The translations under genes and the position numbers were made by a program. From the NCBI GenBank assembly GCA_042218075.1, contig JBDGRK010000005.1, forward strand, positions 68,716 through 132,715: a stretch of 64,000 bases of DNA. Reading direction: 5' to 3'. The stretch is from Candidatus Nanohaloarchaea archaeon. Its GTDB lineage: Archaea; Nanohalarchaeota; Nanosalinia; Nanosalinales; Nanosalinaceae. Below, in pieces: positions 3,425-58,208 of this stretch. The notes beneath the pieces are model-generated. The model was given only the letters and a program-made list of their open reading frames with translations, had not been told where the DNA came from and did no database searches. Position 1 is the first letter of the stretch; each line of letters starts with the position of its first letter.

Positions 3425-4471
3425 CTATCCGGACCCTGTCTCCTCAAGATACTCCTTTCCCTCAGTGCAGTTTTCTCCAAATTTTTCCAGGTCAGTGTTT
3501 GCGCCACAGAGAGGCACCGCGACCTTTCTTCCCTCCAGATTCATGCCTAAATCTCTGCTGAAAAGCACAGCTGACGCAGCAACTGCTCCCGCAGGTTCAG
3601 TAACGACCTTCTGTCTCTCCGCCAGCATAGCTACAGTCGCCTTCACCTGTTCATCGGAAACATAGACCACTTCGTCGACAAGTTCCCTCATGTGCCCGGC
3701 GGGAAGATCTCCTACCCTTCTCGTAGCTATACCTTTCGCAACTGTGTCGACTGAATCTCTCTCGTACACCTTCTCCCGGTTGATAGTCTGCTTCGCGGAA
3801 CCGCACCCCTCTGTCTGTACACCGACAACTCTTGAATCAGGATTCAGGTGCTTTACTGCCGTAGCGACTCCACTTATTAGACCGCCGCCGCCGATGGCCA
3901 CAAAAACAGTGTTGAGTTCCGGGAACTGTTCCACCATCTCTTTTCCCAGTGTTCCCTGCCCTGCTATAACACCCGGATCATTGTATGGATGGACGAAGGT
4001 TAATCCCTGCTCCTTTTCCAGCTTTCTCGCATATTTCTTCGACTCCTCGAACTCCTCTCCATGGAGAACCACATCAGCACCGTAGCCGGAAGTAGCCTCA
4101 ACCTTCGCATCCGGGGTGTTCTCCGGCATCACTATCGTGGCTTCAACACCAAGCTCTCTGGCGGCGAGAGCAACTCCCTGCGCGTGGTTTCCTGAAGAAG
4201 CTGCGATCACTCCCCTCTCCTTATCTTCCCCGGAGAGCCGGGAAATCTTGTTGTAAGCTCCTCTAAGCTTGAAGGCCCCGGTCCTCTGGAAGTTTTCCAT
4301 CTTGAAACCTACTTTATCAGCTCCGGATTTCTCGGCGAAGGTTCTGGAGAAATCCATCGGAGTTTTCTTCGCGATTCCCTCAAGCCTTTCAGCTGCTCCT
4401 TTTACAGAGCTGTAGCTCACCAGTTCTTCGGATTTTGAAGTTTTCAGCGTTGCGTGGTCGTGTTTTGTCAT
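3425..4471 (-). CDS. ilvA: Threonine ammonia-lyase (threonine dehydratase), short form without C-terminal ACT domain
   Basis: KMENFQRTGAFKLRGA PLP-lysine motif, ASSGNHAQGVA, GGGGLISG; ATG 4471 preceded by SD GAGGTG. Confidence 0.92.
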   Translation of the reverse strand: MTKHDHATLKTSKSEELVSYSSVKGAAERLEGIAKKTPMDFSRTFAEKSGADKVGFKMENFQRTGAFKLRGAYNKISRLSGEDKERGVIAASSGNHAQGVALAARELGVEATIVMPENTPDAKVEATSGYGADVVLHGEEFEESKKYARKLEKEQGLTFVHPYNDPGVIAGQGTLGKEMVEQFPELNTVFVAIGGGGLISGVATAVKHLNPDSRVVGVQTEGCGSAKQTINREKVYERDSVDTVAKGIATRRVGDLPAGHMRELVDEVVYVSDEQVKATVAMLAERQKVVTEPAGAVAASAVLFSRDLGMNLEGRKVAVPLCGANTDLEKFGENCTEGKEYLEETGSG

Positions 4472-4517
4472 TTTGCGAAGCACCTCTTGGAGAATAATCT
4501 AAGAGAAAGCTCGATTT

Positions 4518-4640
4518 CTACCCAATAATACCGATAATCGAAATGATGGAAATAGATCCAGAAACTTCAGAAAAATCAGATAGAGTTGGGACTCCCGAAA
4601 CTTTACTCAGATTCAGTAGACCGAAGGATAAAGCGTCCAC
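4518..4640 (-). CDS. Putative Ile-rich leader peptide of ilvA (MDALSFGLLNLSKVSGVPTLSDFSEVSGSISIISIIGIIG)
   Basis: GTG start 22 nt after TTTATAAT (leaderless position); 7 Ile in the last 11 codons and none before; stop 46 nt upstream of the ilvA ATG. Confidence 0.68.
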   Translation of the reverse strand: MDALSFGLLNLSKVSGVPTLSDFSEVSGSISIISIIGIIG

Positions 4641-4701
4641 CCTTCATTGACGAACTCACAGAATTATAAAGAGAAATAAGAATTTAAAAAGGGAAGGGAG
4701 A

Positions 4702-5469
4702 TTACATTCCCATAGTTCCCTGAGAATCGACCTCATCTGTTTCCGGAGTTCGGTCTCGAACATAGCTATCTATAGATGTTCCCGGCATGTAGCCTCTTGA
4801 TTTAATGTACTCCTCTCTGGCTTCAACTATAACTTCATCCGGTATCTCAACATCTCTTCGAGCTTCTGGAGCCCCATCATACCTGTTAGCGGTTACAGCA
4901 TAGCGAGTATCTCCTTCGAGAAGCTGGGTTATCTGCCACTCATGAACCGGATTGATATTGCTCCCAGTGACTTCCTCAAGAAAGTTCTCATCATCTATAT
5001 CCGTCTCCTGCGCCAAGACCCTTATCATCTCCAAATCGTCCACACCAAGATATTCCTCCTCTTCAGGCACTCTATCTCCATAGATCAGAGAATCCGGCAT
5101 CTCATCTTTATAGATGAAATCTCCTTCTCCCGGATCCCACCATCTCTGATCTCTCGGATCCTGTCTGAACTCTACAGTCTCAGCACCACGATTATCAGTG
5201 CCGCTCTGAGTTTGAGTTATCACACCTCCATCGGTTCTTGCTTCATAACCCTCTTCTTCAAACATGAATTCTGAGGCGGTTTCCATATCGCTTTTCTCTT
5301 CCATGATAGAATCGTGGGGATGTTCTGTACTTGTACCGGGATCCCGGCTTTTAGCTTCATTCGGATTTGTGGGCGGAGATTCATCATGAAGAATTTCATG
5401 AACCCTGATGCCTTCTCTGAGTCTTTCATCCAATTCTTCCCTATTCTTGTACTGAGACTTACCCATCAT
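4702..5469 (-). CDS. Acidic hypothetical protein
   Basis: 255-aa ORF with halophilic composition; SD GGAGGTGA upstream. Confidence 0.7.
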   Translation of the reverse strand: MMGKSQYKNREELDERLREGIRVHEILHDESPPTNPNEAKSRDPGTSTEHPHDSIMEEKSDMETASEFMFEEEGYEARTDGGVITQTQSGTDNRGAETVEFRQDPRDQRWWDPGEGDFIYKDEMPDSLIYGDRVPEEEEYLGVDDLEMIRVLAQETDIDDENFLEEVTGSNINPVHEWQITQLLEGDTRYAVTANRYDGAPEARRDVEIPDEVIVEAREEYIKSRGYMPGTSIDSYVRDRTPETDEVDSQGTMGM

Positions 5470-5546
5470 CTCTCACCTCCTTCTACAGCTGTTTCCACGG
5501 ATTTTGAGTCGCGTTGCGTATGTTGGGTTTGGTTGTAGTTTGTCAT
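5466..5546 (-). CDS. 26-aa small ORF (MTNYNQTQHTQRDSKSVETAVEGGER) translationally coupled to the downstream gene
   Basis: Strong SD GAGGTGA before ATG 5546; its TGA overlaps the next ATG (ATGA). Confidence 0.45.
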   Translation of the reverse strand: MTNYNQTQHTQRDSKSVETAVEGGER

Positions 5547-5594
5547 AGAGTGTTCACCTCGAAATTGAGAAACGAGAAATGAACACTGCGCTTT

Positions 5595-5708
5595 TTACAG
5601 CAGCAGTGCCAGCAGAATCAAAAGTAGCAGTGAAAGTCCAAGATCAATTGAATCGGAAATCGAGAAAATAGCTGGAGCTCGTTTATCGCAATTCCAGAAC
5701 GCGTCCAC
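5595..5708 (-). CDS. Putative Leu-rich leader peptide (MDAFWNCDKRAPAIFSISDSIDLGLSLLLLILLALLL)
   Basis: GTG start with the same GTG-GAC-GCN opening as the ilvA leader; 11 Leu in the last 15 codons; stop lies inside a hairpin that competes with an SD-sequestering helix. Confidence 0.6.
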   Translation of the reverse strand: MDAFWNCDKRAPAIFSISDSIDLGLSLLLLILLALLL

Positions 5709-5750
5709 CTATAGTTAATGGCTCCATACTATTTCCCGTTTAATCAGTCT

Positions 5751-6098
5751 TTATAAATTCTTGAGGTTGGCAGTCGCACTGTGATGTCTGTCTTTGCCAT
5801 GCGCAGGATGCCTGTCTATTTCAGAATTTAGCAATCTTTCCGCTTTATTCACCTTTTTGGCATCTTCAGGTTCAAGTTCTACATTTACATCTCTGAGTTT
5901 TATTTCAGCCAAATCCATCAAGTTATACATAGAATCAGAGGGTGTATCCTGGATAAGATCATTCAAATATTCAGCAGCTTCCTCCAGAGCGTCACTTTCA
6001 TATCTATCGGCAATAGTTTCGATGTCGGCAGTCGCTTCTCTGATATCGTCATATCTATCAAGAGCTTCCTTTGGGTAGACGACCATATTACTTATCAT
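5751..6098 (-). CDS. Hypothetical protein
   Basis: 115-aa acidic helical ORF. Confidence 0.6.
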   Translation of the reverse strand: MISNMVVYPKEALDRYDDIREATADIETIADRYESDALEEAAEYLNDLIQDTPSDSMYNLMDLAEIKLRDVNVELEPEDAKKVNKAERLLNSEIDRHPAHGKDRHHSATANLKNL

Positions 6099-6133
6099 TT
6101 CATACAGTTTTTAATACTTTTTGGTAACAACAA

Positions 6134-6823
6134 TCAGAACAATCCCTTCTTTTCTGTTTCTTCAATACCGTTATCTGTTATCTTGAACTGCTTTGACTTT
6201 CCCTCCGGCATCGAGCGGTGCTTCTCCACCTCTATCTCTCGAAGACCGCTATCGACTTTCGAAAGCTTCAGGAGACACTTCGACCAGTAGCGGGGAACAT
6301 CTCTCCCCACCAGCTCGATATCATCCTCGTCAAAGGAAGTGTAGACCTGGTTGGTGACAAGAGCAGGAATATCATTCTTCCTCGCCACCTTCGAAATCTC
6401 GGAGAGCTGCTGGGATAGCTTCTGGTTCATCTCCTGGACCTGGTCTCCCTGGGCCTGTAAGCGGTAGAGCGAAACCATCGAGTCAACTATAACTGCGGAA
6501 GCGTCTTCCTCCTCCGCTATCGATTCAAGAGAGTTGATAGCCTCCTGCTGCTGCCCGAAGTCGAGAGGCTCGTTTACCACCATGTTTTCCAGCGCTTCCT
6601 CAGAGGCGATCTGGCTGAACCGCTCCGCCGAAAAACCCTTCTCGGTATCGAGGTAGATGACCTTCTCGCCTTCCGAGGCCAGATGCGCCGCGACCTGGAC
6701 GCAGAAGTTGGTCTTCCCTGATCCCGACTCTCCGAATACATTGGTGATTATACCCTTCTCGAGCCCTCCTTTTAGGAAAGAGTCGATAGGCTCGCTTCCA
6801 GTAGATACACGTTCTACTTCCAC
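6134..6823 (-). CDS. radB: DNA repair and recombination protein RadB
   Basis: Walker A GESGSGKT, VIYLDTE, IVDS, NQVY, C-terminal KHR motif; lacks the RadA N-terminal domain. Confidence 0.92.
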   Translation of the reverse strand: MEVERVSTGSEPIDSFLKGGLEKGIITNVFGESGSGKTNFCVQVAAHLASEGEKVIYLDTEKGFSAERFSQIASEEALENMVVNEPLDFGQQQEAINSLESIAEEEDASAVIVDSMVSLYRLQAQGDQVQEMNQKLSQQLSEISKVARKNDIPALVTNQVYTSFDEDDIELVGRDVPRYWSKCLLKLSKVDSGLREIEVEKHRSMPEGKSKQFKITDNGIEETEKKGLF

Positions 6824-6873
6824 ACCCGAGCTTTCACTCGAAATCTTTTATCGGTGTGTGATAGAACTTTCAT

Positions 6874-7063
6874 ATGGGCTTAATAGAGGAGGAAGTTGAA
6901 GATAAGAATCAACTTGGAAAGGATAAATACTGAAATTGGCGAGTATTCAATAGCTGTAGAAGCACTTATTTTTGATCTCGAAGGTGATCGGATTCTGATG
7001 GAAGAAGGATCCGGATGTTGAGACGAAGTTGATAAATTGGAAGTTATTGCCGCCTGTTATTGA
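6874..7063 (+). pseudogene. Possible degraded gene fragment (NUDIX-like N-terminus)
   Basis: Broken frames read ...YSIAVEALIFDLEGDRILMEEGSGC*DEVDKLE, with stops and a frameshift; adjacent to a low-GC cassette. Confidence 0.25.
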
Positions 7064-7701
7064 ACCTGTTTAATGTCTGCTTCAGTATCTCCTGATAGTT
7101 TCTGAACTTCCATATTCCATGCGACCGATTTGAAAATCTCTCCACTATCTAACTCATAATTTGTTAAAGCGTCCCTAAGAGCTTCTTGATATTCTTGTTG
7201 AGATCTCCCATATGCTTCTTTAGCAGTTTTGCCTTTCAATAGAGAGATAGGAACTTGGTTCGAGGGATAAAGACAAAGTTCAGCGACTTTATCCTCCAAA
7301 GGTTTTGTCGTTTTTTTAGTTTGTATAATGAAGTTAAACTTATCCTCATAGCCTATATATGCTTTAGCCCCGTTTTCCACACAAGAGGGCCCCAGTTCTT
7401 TCGCTGAACTACAAGTTCGTGCATATACAATTTTGTCTTTTGTTAAGTCTTCATTATCATTTTTTTGTAGCATTGGCTCTTCATCTTCGCCTTCAACGCA
7501 TGTTGTTGATCCATGACCATTTAGAACCATCAAATCCGCGTTATTAGATTCAATGTAACTTTCAAAGTTATTTCTATTTGGATTTTCAATATCAAGAACT
7601 TTAACACCAAGGTTGTTGGCCATCGAAATTATTTTTTGACTCCAAGCACTCGCATATGCGGTTGTTTTATCGTATTGTGGTAGAGTAACCAGTAATTCCA
7701 T
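7057..7701 (-). CDS. Putative caspase/gingipain-fold (clan CD) cysteine protease-like protein
   Basis: Hydrophobic strand + NGHGS and IVYARTC, matching His-Gly...Cys dyad spacing; AYIGY strand; AT-rich gene. Confidence 0.55.
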   Translation of the reverse strand: MELLVTLPQYDKTTAYASAWSQKIISMANNLGVKVLDIENPNRNNFESYIESNNADLMVLNGHGSTTCVEGEDEEPMLQKNDNEDLTKDKIVYARTCSSAKELGPSCVENGAKAYIGYEDKFNFIIQTKKTTKPLEDKVAELCLYPSNQVPISLLKGKTAKEAYGRSQQEYQEALRDALTNYELDSGEIFKSVAWNMEVQKLSGDTEADIKQVQ

Positions 7702-57451: not shown

Positions 57452-57792
57452 AGCACCGAGAGCTCTACTTTCTGTCCCTAATTTTCGCAGCAGTTGGAAT
57501 AACGGTTCTGTATTTTACTACCGTGTGGATGGAACCGGAAAAAGTGAGAGTTGACGAGATCAAAACATCTATGGTGGGGGACGTCGTGGGGGTCAGTGGA
57601 GAGGTCGCCAACTACAGTTATTATGGCGGGAACAGTTTCTTTCAGCTGAAAGACGGGAATTCAAGCATCAAGGCTGTTCAATTCGATTCTGAGAAAAGGC
57701 TGGAGGAAGGTAAAGAAGTAAGAGTTAAGGGCGAACTGGCTATTTACAAGGGGAAGATGGAGATAATCGTGGATTCTGTAGAGAAGAAATAG
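57448..57792 (+). CDS. Membrane-anchored OB-fold protein, probable CTG start
   Basis: OB fold (F.LKDG..SIKAV.F, YKGKMEI); the frame extends upstream through a TM helix to a CTG overlapping the thpR TGA. Confidence 0.65.
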   Translation: MKHRELYFLSLIFAAVGITVLYFTTVWMEPEKVRVDEIKTSMVGDVVGVSGEVANYSYYGGNSFFQLKDGNSSIKAVQFDSEKRLEEGKEVRVKGELAIYKGKMEIIVDSVEKK

Positions 57793-57821
57793 TTTTAACG
57801 ATCATACTCTCATCCGGAATT

Positions 57822-58208
57822 ATGCTGCTCTACCTTGTTATAATCCTACTGGCGCTCCCATTCCTAGACCTCTATATCCTGATCCAGGCAGCGGACTTTA
57901 TCGGAATTGTCCCGACACTGGGCCTGATACTTGCTACAGGTTTGATCGGTGCAGCGATCCTGAAGCGGGAGATGGAAAGGGTGGGCAGAAAACTTTTCAC
58001 ATCGGTAACTGCCAGGGAGATTTCAAGAAACATGCTGGAAGGTTTTCTTCTACTGGTGGGCGGAATAATGCTTCTGACTCCTGGCTTTTTAACAGATTTT
58101 ACCGGTTTTTTGCTGCTTGTGAGGCCTCTCAGGGTTAAGCTGATGCTGAGGATCGAGGAAAAACTGGAGAACAGCTCTAACGTCAGTGTGCAGGTCGGAA
58201 CTATTTAG
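57822..58208 (+). CDS. fxsA: FxsA family membrane protein
   Basis: GGIMLLTPGFLTDFTG motif. Confidence 0.85.
   Translation: MLLYLVIILLALPFLDLYILIQAADFIGIVPTLGLILATGLIGAAILKREMERVGRKLFTSVTAREISRNMLEGFLLLVGGIMLLTPGFLTDFTGFLLLVRPLRVKLMLRIEEKLENSSNVSVQVGTI

Follow-up and report, generated by a model that had tools for sequence, protein, structure and literature searches.

A leucine leader of a nanohaloarchaeon belongs to a widespread archaeal leader family with gene-matched specifier codons and may sense leucine through a prfB-like +1 frameshift

The window analyzed here is a stretch of 64,000 nucleotides (nt) from the genome of a Candidatus Nanohaloarchaea archaeon (assembly GCA_042218075.1, contig JBDGRK010000005.1, positions 68,716 to 132,715). 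On its minus strand a gene for an acidic, Leu-poor protein of 255 residues is preceded by a leader in which a short open reading frame (ORF) ends in a run of Leu codons. This Leu leader is one copy of a widespread archaeal mRNA leader family. Its members share a 5' module in which a single specifier codon directly follows a conserved motif, and that codon names the amino acid of the gene behind it. We consider it fairly likely that the Leu leader is a two-tier Leu sensor read by ribosomes on a leaderless mRNA, with a +1 frameshift at a hungry specifier resembling that of the release-factor-2 gene, prfB.

The family was delineated with the pattern GGTGGAYGCKTT, which occurs at 142 sites in 46 of the 50 family genomes, against 5 sites for the reversed control. 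When 70 genomes from five families of the phylum are compared, the pattern is found in 45 of 49, 8 of 8, 3 of 10, 0 of 1 and 0 of 1 genomes, respectively. We fetched 100 motif regions and tabulated 130 motif sites. The shared 5' module consists of a TATA box about 30 nt before a leaderless ATG, a short upstream ORF (uORF1) carrying GGT GGA YGC KTT, and the specifier codon directly thereafter. An in-frame ATG, a uORF1 whose stop comes within 30 codons and a +1-frame ORF of 20 codons or more are found together at 110 of the 130 sites; among the remaining 20 are VDAF matches inside genes (EF-2, Dph2, DNA polymerase) that have neither the ATG nor the short ORF. At 103 of the 130 sites, GGT GGA YGC shares its frame with the closest ATG upstream, at distances of 6–81 nt, all multiples of three. 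A TATA-like hexamer starts 24–36 nt upstream of the in-frame ATG in 72 of 110 leaders, with a peak at 30–32 nt; a start 29–34 nt before that ATG fits a leaderless mRNA. In the window's Leu leader, the TATA box TTTATAAA starts 30 nt upstream of ATG 5727. Alignment of 11 loci shows the same order of parts throughout. The 5' portion holds the TATA box, about 22 nt, the ATG and a variable in-frame stretch that leads to GGTGGACGCGTTCTG. A variable linker, the Leu run with its stop, a first helix, a pyrimidine-rich stretch, GAGGTGAAC and a second ATG make up the middle, and the 3' portion is an ORF of 25–27 codons, TGATG, and a main gene that differs between genomes.

The identity of the specifier follows the gene that it precedes. 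Scanning the window genome for the motif places the 5' module ahead of thrS, serS, valS, proS, pheS and tyrS. Across the family the specifier encodes the amino acid of the synthetase in all 33 cases typed with NCBIfam, which span nine amino acids (thrS 6, serS 6, valS 5, proS 7, tyrS 4, glyS 2, lysS 1, hisS 1 and pheS 1), and it matches as well in four further thrS leaders recognized by homology. Pathway genes obey the same rule: hisG is paired with a His codon, proC and proB with Pro, the 2-isopropylmalate synthase gene (leuA) with Leu and the anthranilate synthase gene (trpE) with Trp. An ilvA-like gene has an Ile specifier in 4 genomes, and a class-I amidotransferase has a Leu specifier in 5. 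A Trp specifier stands ahead of an M20 deacylase, a hisC-like aminotransferase, an inositol-monophosphatase-like protein and an orphan of 244 residues. The specifier thereby predicts the amino acid to which an uncharacterized gene is tied, which would be Leu for the 255-residue orphan and the class-I amidotransferase, and Trp for the 244-residue orphan, the M20 deacylase and the aminotransferase.

Two overlapping frames run through the module. Beyond uORF1, the +1 frame is open up to the main start, with stop-to-ATG distances of −4 (nine leaders), −8 (six) and −1 (five), where negative values denote overlap. Elsewhere the +1 frame itself encodes a conserved protein from the motif onward: the 244-residue orphan, the M20 deacylase, the amidotransferase, or AbrB/MazE-like domains. 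The last of these (L082, L085 and L092 with a His specifier, L034 with a Tyr specifier) match Pfam PF04014 with E values of 7e-5 to 3e-9, and such a regulator may be made only on starvation.

The motif itself has the sequence features of a prfB-type site, namely a Shine-Dalgarno (SD)-like stretch a few nt upstream, an NTT or CCT codon followed by the specifier, and a +1 frame that is open or fused. GGTGGA is invariant, as is the GTG within the motif; the base after TGG is always A, and 4 nt separate the paired GGTGG from the NTT codon. The duplex of the motif with the genome's own 16S rRNA 3' end is computed at −7.1 to −7.3 kcal/mol (−7.1 for the window's Leu copy), which is weaker than those of the true SD sequences of the Leu leader (−11.8 and −15.5 kcal/mol). 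The junction between the NTT codon and the specifier obeys a further rule, in that GTT precedes specifiers that start with C in 45 of 46 cases and TTT precedes those that start with A or G in 31 of 31. TTT-C is therefore avoided. Neither peptide would account for this avoidance, whereas a slip site would, as TTT-C would allow perfect re-pairing of the Phe tRNA and hence a constitutive shift. In other lineages CTT or CCT takes the KTT position and the Thr specifier is kept.

These features suggest how the first tier, common to the whole family, might operate. A ribosome would start at the 5'-terminal ATG (5727 in the Leu leader) and translate the short uORF1, which would bring the motif and specifier into the decoding center: the SD-like AGGTGG, a YGY codon, the shift-prone NTT codon and, in the A site, the specifier CTG. 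Were charged Leu-tRNA scarce, the A site would stay empty and the ribosome would slip by +1, much as in prfB but with a hungry sense codon in place of a stop codon. In synthetase leaders, the slipped ribosome would follow the +1 frame to the main start and drive it by translational coupling, or the +1 frame would be the main protein itself. In the Leu leader, it would enter the frame of a GTG-started ORF (uORF2), to which the first-pass annotation had assigned the leader peptide.

That annotation had described a GTG-started Leu-run leader, a helix around its stop, a second helix over the SD, an arm common to both that makes them mutually exclusive, and a 26-residue ORF (uORF3) coupled to the 255-residue one. 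All of these are present (Table 1), the common arm being 5587–5582. The uORF2 frame is kept in orthologues, where differences in length are multiples of three, and uORF3 has 25–27 codons and a conserved peptide pattern in the 10 aligned orthologues. The ATG at 5727, opening a 14-codon ORF in a frame other than that of the GTG, is likewise there. It had been entered as a caveat to initiation at the GTG, a role that it outgrows: the ORF is conserved, and we regard it as the sensing ORF, from which a +1 shift is the more likely way into the GTG frame. The anatomy was read from the sequence together with the ORF listing, and all features of the Leu leader lie on the minus strand.

Table 1. Coordinates of the Leu leader, its gene and the neighboring Ile leader in the window (aa, amino acids; PLP, pyridoxal 5'-phosphate)
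Feature	Position	Strand	Remarks
TATA box TTTATAAA	5750..5757	(-)	read in the sequence; overlaps the stop of the upstream 115-aa ORF
uORF1, presumed leaderless sensing ORF	5683..5727	(-)	14 codons plus stop; ..GGT GGA CGC GTT CTG..
Conserved motif GGTGGACGC GTT	5698..5709	(-)	SD-like stretch, presumed E-site codon CGC, presumed P-site codon GTT
Specifier codon CTG (Leu) in uORF1 frame	5695..5697	(-)	position set by the family tabulation
uORF2, +1-frame ORF (GTG leader of the first-pass annotation)	5595..5708	(-)	37 codons plus TAA (5597-5595)
Leu run	5598..5642	(-)	11 Leu among the last 15 codons of uORF2
Helix 1	5582..5610	(-)	5610-5599 with 5592-5582; encloses the uORF2 stop
Helix 2	5549..5587	(-)	5587-5576 with 5560-5549; pyrimidine-rich anti-SD loop; SD GAGGTGA at 5560-5554
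uORF3	5466..5546	(-)	ATG 5546; 26 codons; TGA overlaps the main ATG as ATGA (5469-5466)
Leu-poor acidic 255-aa protein, presumed controlled gene	4702..5469	(-)	ORF listing, family searches, composition
uORF1 of Ile leader	4603..4647	(-)	ATG AAG GGT GGA CGC TTT ATC..; specifier ATC 4629-4627
+1-frame ORF of Ile leader	4518..4640	(-)	ends in Ile run
Threonine ammonia-lyase-like PLP enzyme	3425..4471	(-)	start probably ATG 4471; N-terminus resembles uORF3

A second tier is proposed for the Leu, Ile and Val leaders, whose +1 frame has at its end a run of codons for the specifier's amino acid. Among 34 run-type leaders the composition of the run tracks the specifier or specifiers: a Leu specifier goes with a Leu run, Ile with Ile, Ile plus Leu with mixed Ile/Leu, Val plus Leu with mixed Val/Leu, and Val with Val/Ala. 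Since the run follows the specifier, we take it to be a codon sensor rather than just a hydrophobic tail. Runs occur only with these three amino acids. In the Leu leader, helix 1 encloses the stop and is formed with the final codons of the run; helix 2 would hide the ribosome-binding site of uORF3, to which the gene for the 255-residue protein is coupled, and the net outcome would be that this protein is made when Leu is short.

The composition of the proteins behind these leaders points the same way. The 255-residue protein contains 3.9% Leu, compared with a genome mean of 8.7% and a first percentile of 4.2%, and one orthologue has no Leu in 171 residues. Over all proteins behind run leaders, the level of the sensed residue relative to the genome background is 0.39, and that of the other branched-chain residues is 0.97 (36 values each, from relatives that are not independent). 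The ammonia-lyases behind Ile leaders contain 1.6–4.5% Ile against a mean of 6.3%, the window's own copy 2.6%. We take this composition to be a stronger clue to the direction of the response than the helix structure, and for that reason conclude that the 255-residue product is probably made when Leu is short. Extreme depletion of the cognate residue was also noted elsewhere: a prolyl-tRNA synthetase (genome G000, contig C40, L132:920-2149) has no Pro in 410 residues, where the genome mean is 3.5%, a hisG product (L054) lacks His, and a trpE product (L117) and Trp-linked proteins lack Trp.

The 255-residue protein is itself acidic and Leu-poor, probably largely disordered, and tied to Leu supply. 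No Pfam or NCBIfam family matches it, and among 467 scored candidates of 140–447 residues from a collection of 5.8 billion proteins, only the protein itself was recovered. It matches 3 of 60 related genomes, weakly, while the DNA of 5440–5760 matches 22 of 49 other family genomes with 68–100% identity where they match, so that conservation is higher for the leader than for the gene behind it. The protein had been called an ORFan. Outside the lineage it does lack relatives, but within it other genera carry fast-evolving relatives at the corresponding position, L026 sharing 44% identity over 185 residues and L002 45% over the first 82. Structure prediction for 4702–5469, a check that the first-pass annotation had suggested, yielded no usable fold. 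The ESM Atlas model has a predicted local distance difference test score (pLDDT) of 0.37 and no usable look-alike, and AlphaFold2 with a four-sequence alignment gives a pLDDT of 45.1 and a predicted template modeling score of 0.22.

Both helices of the Leu leader are stable, and both persist across genera with compensatory changes. Folded alone, helix 1 has a free energy of −15.1 kcal/mol (z = −3.07), equaled by none of 200 shuffles, and helix 2 has one of −14.1 kcal/mol (z = −3.46), equaled by 1 of 200. The whole leader of 301 nt is no more stable than its shuffles (z = 0.30). In an alignment of 13 sequences, helix 1 is paired at 93% and five of its pairs have changed on both sides. Helix 1 combined with the inner anti-SD:SD stem gives a covariation of 0.39 against 0.24 for shuffled alignments (0 of 500 as high). 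Helix 2 is paired at 75% in the 13-sequence MAFFT alignment, and its covariation is not significant there. In a comparison of 18 leaders, however, the arms of both helices pair better with their own partners than with those of other leaders (0 of 5000 permutations for each), with scores of −13.9 versus −10.8 kcal/mol for helix 1 and −13.1 versus −9.6 kcal/mol for helix 2. The divergent leaders L003, L070, L072 and L017 keep both helices with different sequences.

How a ribosome on the run would affect these helices was modeled by folding 13 leaders under the constraint of a ribosome footprint on the late run, a purely thermodynamic treatment. In both states the SD is paired: it lies in a weak inner hairpin opposite the pyrimidine-rich anti-SD, and once helix 1 has opened, helix 2 lengthens that hairpin. 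In the model, a footprint on the late run blocks helix 1 and favors helix 2, which hides the SD, and computed SD accessibility drops or is unchanged in most of the 13 leaders, rising only in L007 and L017.

Several observations weigh against the two-tier sensor, or against starvation as its inducing signal. The late-run footprint lowers computed SD accessibility in L003, L070, L072 and L013, and in the window's Leu leader the value stays at about 0.22–0.27, so in the folding model the helix wiring does not simply yield induction. Some orthologues have the run and lack the helices, and in L045 and L046 only 22–24 nt separate the stop from the ATG. A ribosome shifted by Leu scarcity would have to cross 11 more Leu codons, which looks self-defeating. 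The frameshift, like the direction of the response and the action of a stall through the helices, is inferred. At several sites, such as GTT-C, a P-site tRNA that had slipped by +1 would find only a poor match, and initiation at the GTG, which is invariant in the motif, is compatible with the same sequences. At the level of the family, the leader is absent ahead of thrS at four of eight loci read upstream (L142, L147, L149 and L150; the count leaves out a ninth locus, L146, which lacks an N-terminal match). Related genomes are not independent either, and the counts given above overstate their statistical weight. Despite this kinship, nine synthetase types each carry their own codon.

The claim of induction by Leu starvation, made at the outset for the Leu leader, divides. 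The Leu specifier, the run that matches it, the Leu-poor product and the conserved helices and coupling ORF all speak for it, and the helix wiring speaks against it. That the element senses Leu is supported by these features of the sequence. For the effect of a stall on the late run, we see three candidates. It might serve as a gate against leaky re-initiation after the in-frame TAA, combined with a further frame change within the run; the parked ribosome might protect the mRNA; or the leader might control transcription. The last is a weak candidate because the window's Leu leader has no T4 run between helix 1 and the SD, and because gene ends in the window genome are T runs without hairpins. 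Bearing on the first, the run's next frame, reached by a second +1 shift, was followed in 31 leaders. In 8 of them, the window's Leu leader included, it ends at a TGA over the ATG of uORF3; 6 others have the TGA 9–20 nt before this ATG, and in a further 6 the frame closes near the stop of uORF3. A second +1 shift inside the run is nonetheless speculation, since these TGAs have other grounds for being there and repeated CTG is not a slippery sequence.

Two routes were considered and rejected. Transcription attenuation was discarded since no terminator-like site was called at 5549–5610 and the terminators of this genome resemble plain T runs. Read-through of the stop of the run ORF into uORF3 is not a general route, for the two share a frame in only 9 of 16 leaders, across spacers of 22–64 nt.

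The strongest competitor is the arrangement first proposed, a classical leader peptide that starts at GTG 5708, with a stall on the Leu run that switches the helices and induces uORF3 and the 255-residue protein, and with the ATG ORF irrelevant. In its favor, the run, the two helices and the coupling ORF exist and are conserved, the GTG is invariant in the motif, and orthologue L008, which has lost it, has an ATG directly in frame with the run ORF. We nevertheless consider this arrangement unlikely. No SD precedes the GTG, which lies 6–81 nt inside a leaderless mRNA, and a GTG start leaves unaccounted for the in-frame ATG at 103 of 130 sites, the avoidance of TTT-C, and a specifier that is meaningful only in the ATG frame. 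A stall on the late run would, moreover, favor the helix that hides the SD. The position of the GTG argues further for the +1 shift. A stall at the specifier would place the ribosome over the GTG, which begins 8 nt before the P-site codon, and therefore initiation there would fall on starvation, which is the wrong direction for synthetases and biosynthetic genes.

A second rival keeps the sensor and reverses its sign in run-type leaders: ribosomes that enter the run ORF would stall over helix 1, helix 2 would lock the ribosome-binding site, and the 255-residue protein and the ammonia-lyase would be shut off under scarcity of Leu or Ile. The lowered SD accessibility in the four leaders named above fits this arrangement. 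So does the finding that dihydroxy-acid dehydratase (IlvD) was not detected in the window genome (no PF00920 match at 92% completeness), in that the ammonia-lyase need not then be biosynthetic. Against it stands the depletion of the products in the sensed residue and not in the other branched-chain residues, as expected of proteins made during that very starvation; and the directly coupled members of the family (synthetases, leuA, hisG) must be starvation-induced. A reversed sign is, in our judgment, quite improbable.

Two further explanations have very little chance of being correct. An RNA-only device like a T-box, with the specifier pairing with the tRNA anticodon and the motif contacting the tRNA, would share the logic of a codon that names the amino acid, yet Rfam gives no match in 4000–7500, which covers both leaders, at E up to 1 (T-box included), the specifier, at 18–93 nt from the 5' end, has no conserved stem before it, a ribosome is indicated both by the frame link to the ATG and by the open +1 frame, and the base after TGG is invariably A and so does not vary with the tRNA. 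Equally implausible is a small hydrophobic membrane peptide with no sensing role and incidental helices, for although the last 15 residues of the Leu-rich peptide are hydrophobic and runs are confined to Leu, Ile and Val, the run composition tracks the specifier even in mixed cases (Ile plus Leu, Val plus Leu), Ser and Gly interrupt the Ile runs, which are not long enough for a membrane helix, and the middle of the peptide is not conserved.

The arrangement occurs twice in the window. An Ile leader, the second copy, lies directly downstream of the Leu leader's gene and ahead of the threonine ammonia-lyase-like gene (Table 1). The ammonia-lyase ORF is listed from GTG 4483; ATG 4471 is the likelier start, with AGAGGTG 8 nt upstream, and the first 18 residues from there resemble the separate 26-codon uORF3 of the Leu leader. 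The transcription start of the Ile leader may be set by either of two TATA-like boxes (4690–4681 and 4670–4663). A terminator-like 7-bp hairpin at 4635–4655 (minus strand) pairs the sequence just before ATG 4647 with GGTGGAC of the Ile leader, and it could form only if transcription starts upstream of that ATG. In addition to the undetected IlvD, matches to ketol-acid reductoisomerase in the window genome are weak (24 bits), and a class-IV (branched-chain) aminotransferase is present. The pathway as found in this genome therefore gives no indication of the sign of Ile control.

The surroundings of the Leu leader and some outlying members of the family also deserve mention. An acidic ORF of 115 residues (5751–6098, minus strand) lies between a radB-like gene (6134–6823) and the Leu leader; its sole match is a sub-threshold one to the DnaB N-terminal domain (E = 0.008), and its stop is inside the leader's TATA box. 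A degenerate leader without GGTGGACGC is found in G000 (contig C36, about 57700–58100, minus strand), ahead of an acidic protein of 130 residues and a branched-chain aminotransferase. Its parts are a TATA box, an ATG-started 34-codon ORF with a short hydrophobic tail, an SD and a uORF3-like ORF of 23 codons. In the second family, serS at L138 and L139 has a different conserved leader, which begins ATG ACA GGG TTT T.. CGC CAA TCA. The end of a long ORF in a further frame overlaps the serS ATG, and this leader may be a variant cassette in which CGC CAA is followed by a Ser codon. Finally, tandem leaders with the same specifier (Trp plus Trp, Pro plus Pro) occur 190–370 nt apart ahead of one operon (G000 contig C10 at 50939 and 50663, contig C40 at 13042 and 12854; L036, L056, L033, L111 and L117).

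The window genome comprises 1.1 Mb in 40 contigs, is 92% complete with 46.9% G+C, and encodes very acidic proteins. Its DNA was found in metagenome runs from salt lakes and hypersaline sites (10 runs listed, none on record as RNA). There is no tRNA gene within the window. Aragorn output for the 40-contig assembly was parsed to 9 tRNA genes, and the tRNA repertoire was not used in any argument here.

Beyond the Leu leader, and with somewhat less assurance, we lean toward the view that the nano-haloarchaea control an amino-acid-supply regulon through one portable +1 frameshift cassette, in which the sense codon in the A site is the sole determinant of specificity. If so, a swap of one codon would retarget a gene, for example from Thr to Pro control. 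A single sensor would have several outputs: coupled synthetases, biosynthetic enzymes, AbrB-like regulators in the +1 frame and, behind the second-tier Leu, Ile and Val runs, proteins purged of the sensed residue. Such a cassette would be the first natural example of a regulatory sensor based on hungry-codon frameshifting, and also the first cis-regulator of archaeal synthetase genes that is specific for an amino acid. It offers a directly testable answer to how tRNA charging controls gene expression in an entire phylum of small-genome, host-dependent archaea, and its small size and specificity set by a single codon make it attractive for synthetic biology.

We know of no T-box and no described leader-peptide attenuator in archaea, nor of an established link there between tRNA charging and the expression of synthetase or amino-acid genes. 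Our literature searches on Nanohaloarchaea, on archaeal attenuation, leaders and T-boxes, and on hungry-codon frameshifting returned no report of such a system among the titles and abstracts listed, those on Nanohaloarchaea yielding nothing beyond two unrelated papers, and the passages on the subject in two reviews (PMC8211752 and PMC5009743) do not mention one. In its passages on frameshifting, the latter review, from 2016, describes the natural use of hungry-codon frameshifting as unclear (PMC5009743). A search on cognate amino-acid bias listed a further article (PMC4209129).

Comparison with known systems places the Leu leader between several of them. Attenuation by leader peptides regulates the leu, ilv, trp and his operons of bacteria. 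The Leu leader resembles these attenuators in having a short translated leader with a run of regulatory codons, in the presumed use of the ribosome as a sensor of charged tRNA, and in a stop codon beside mutually exclusive helices. It differs from them in being archaeal and on a leaderless mRNA, in an output helix that hides a ribosome-binding site rather than forming a terminator, in the single specifier beside a fixed motif upstream of the run, in a run ORF that is out of frame with the 5' ATG, and in a cassette that also serves synthetase genes without any run. The T-box riboswitch of Gram-positive bacteria, with its Stem I and antiterminator, is likewise one cassette reused before many synthetase and amino-acid genes, with one codon that sets specificity. 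No T-box RNA, Stem I or antiterminator was detected here, however, and the archaeal specifier shares its frame with a start codon and is evidently decoded by a ribosome rather than by a free tRNA on the RNA.

With prfB, the family shares a short zero-frame ORF, an internal SD-like stretch a few nt upstream of an NTT shift codon, a slow codon in the A site and, as proposed, a product or downstream effect that comes from the +1 frame. It departs from prfB in that the slow codon is a sense codon varying by gene, in that a whole regulon would be served rather than self-control, and in being archaeal. This comparison draws in part on the frameshift-sensor passages of PMC5009743. The same passages describe the ermC leader, in which drugs induce stalling and ketolides induce frameshifting that unfolds the mRNA (PMC5009743). 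As far as they go, ermC is similar in placing a leader ORF before a hidden ribosome-binding site, with ribosomes that have changed frame entering the spacer and altering access to the downstream start; it differs in that its trigger is an antibiotic and not uncharged tRNA, and in having no specifier codon or family-wide cassette. The archaeal element lacks the terminator that defines an attenuator and the RNA that defines a T-box, while its sequence carries the features of a prfB-type site, and by this analogy the leader family looks like a ribosome-based counterpart of the bacterial T-box.

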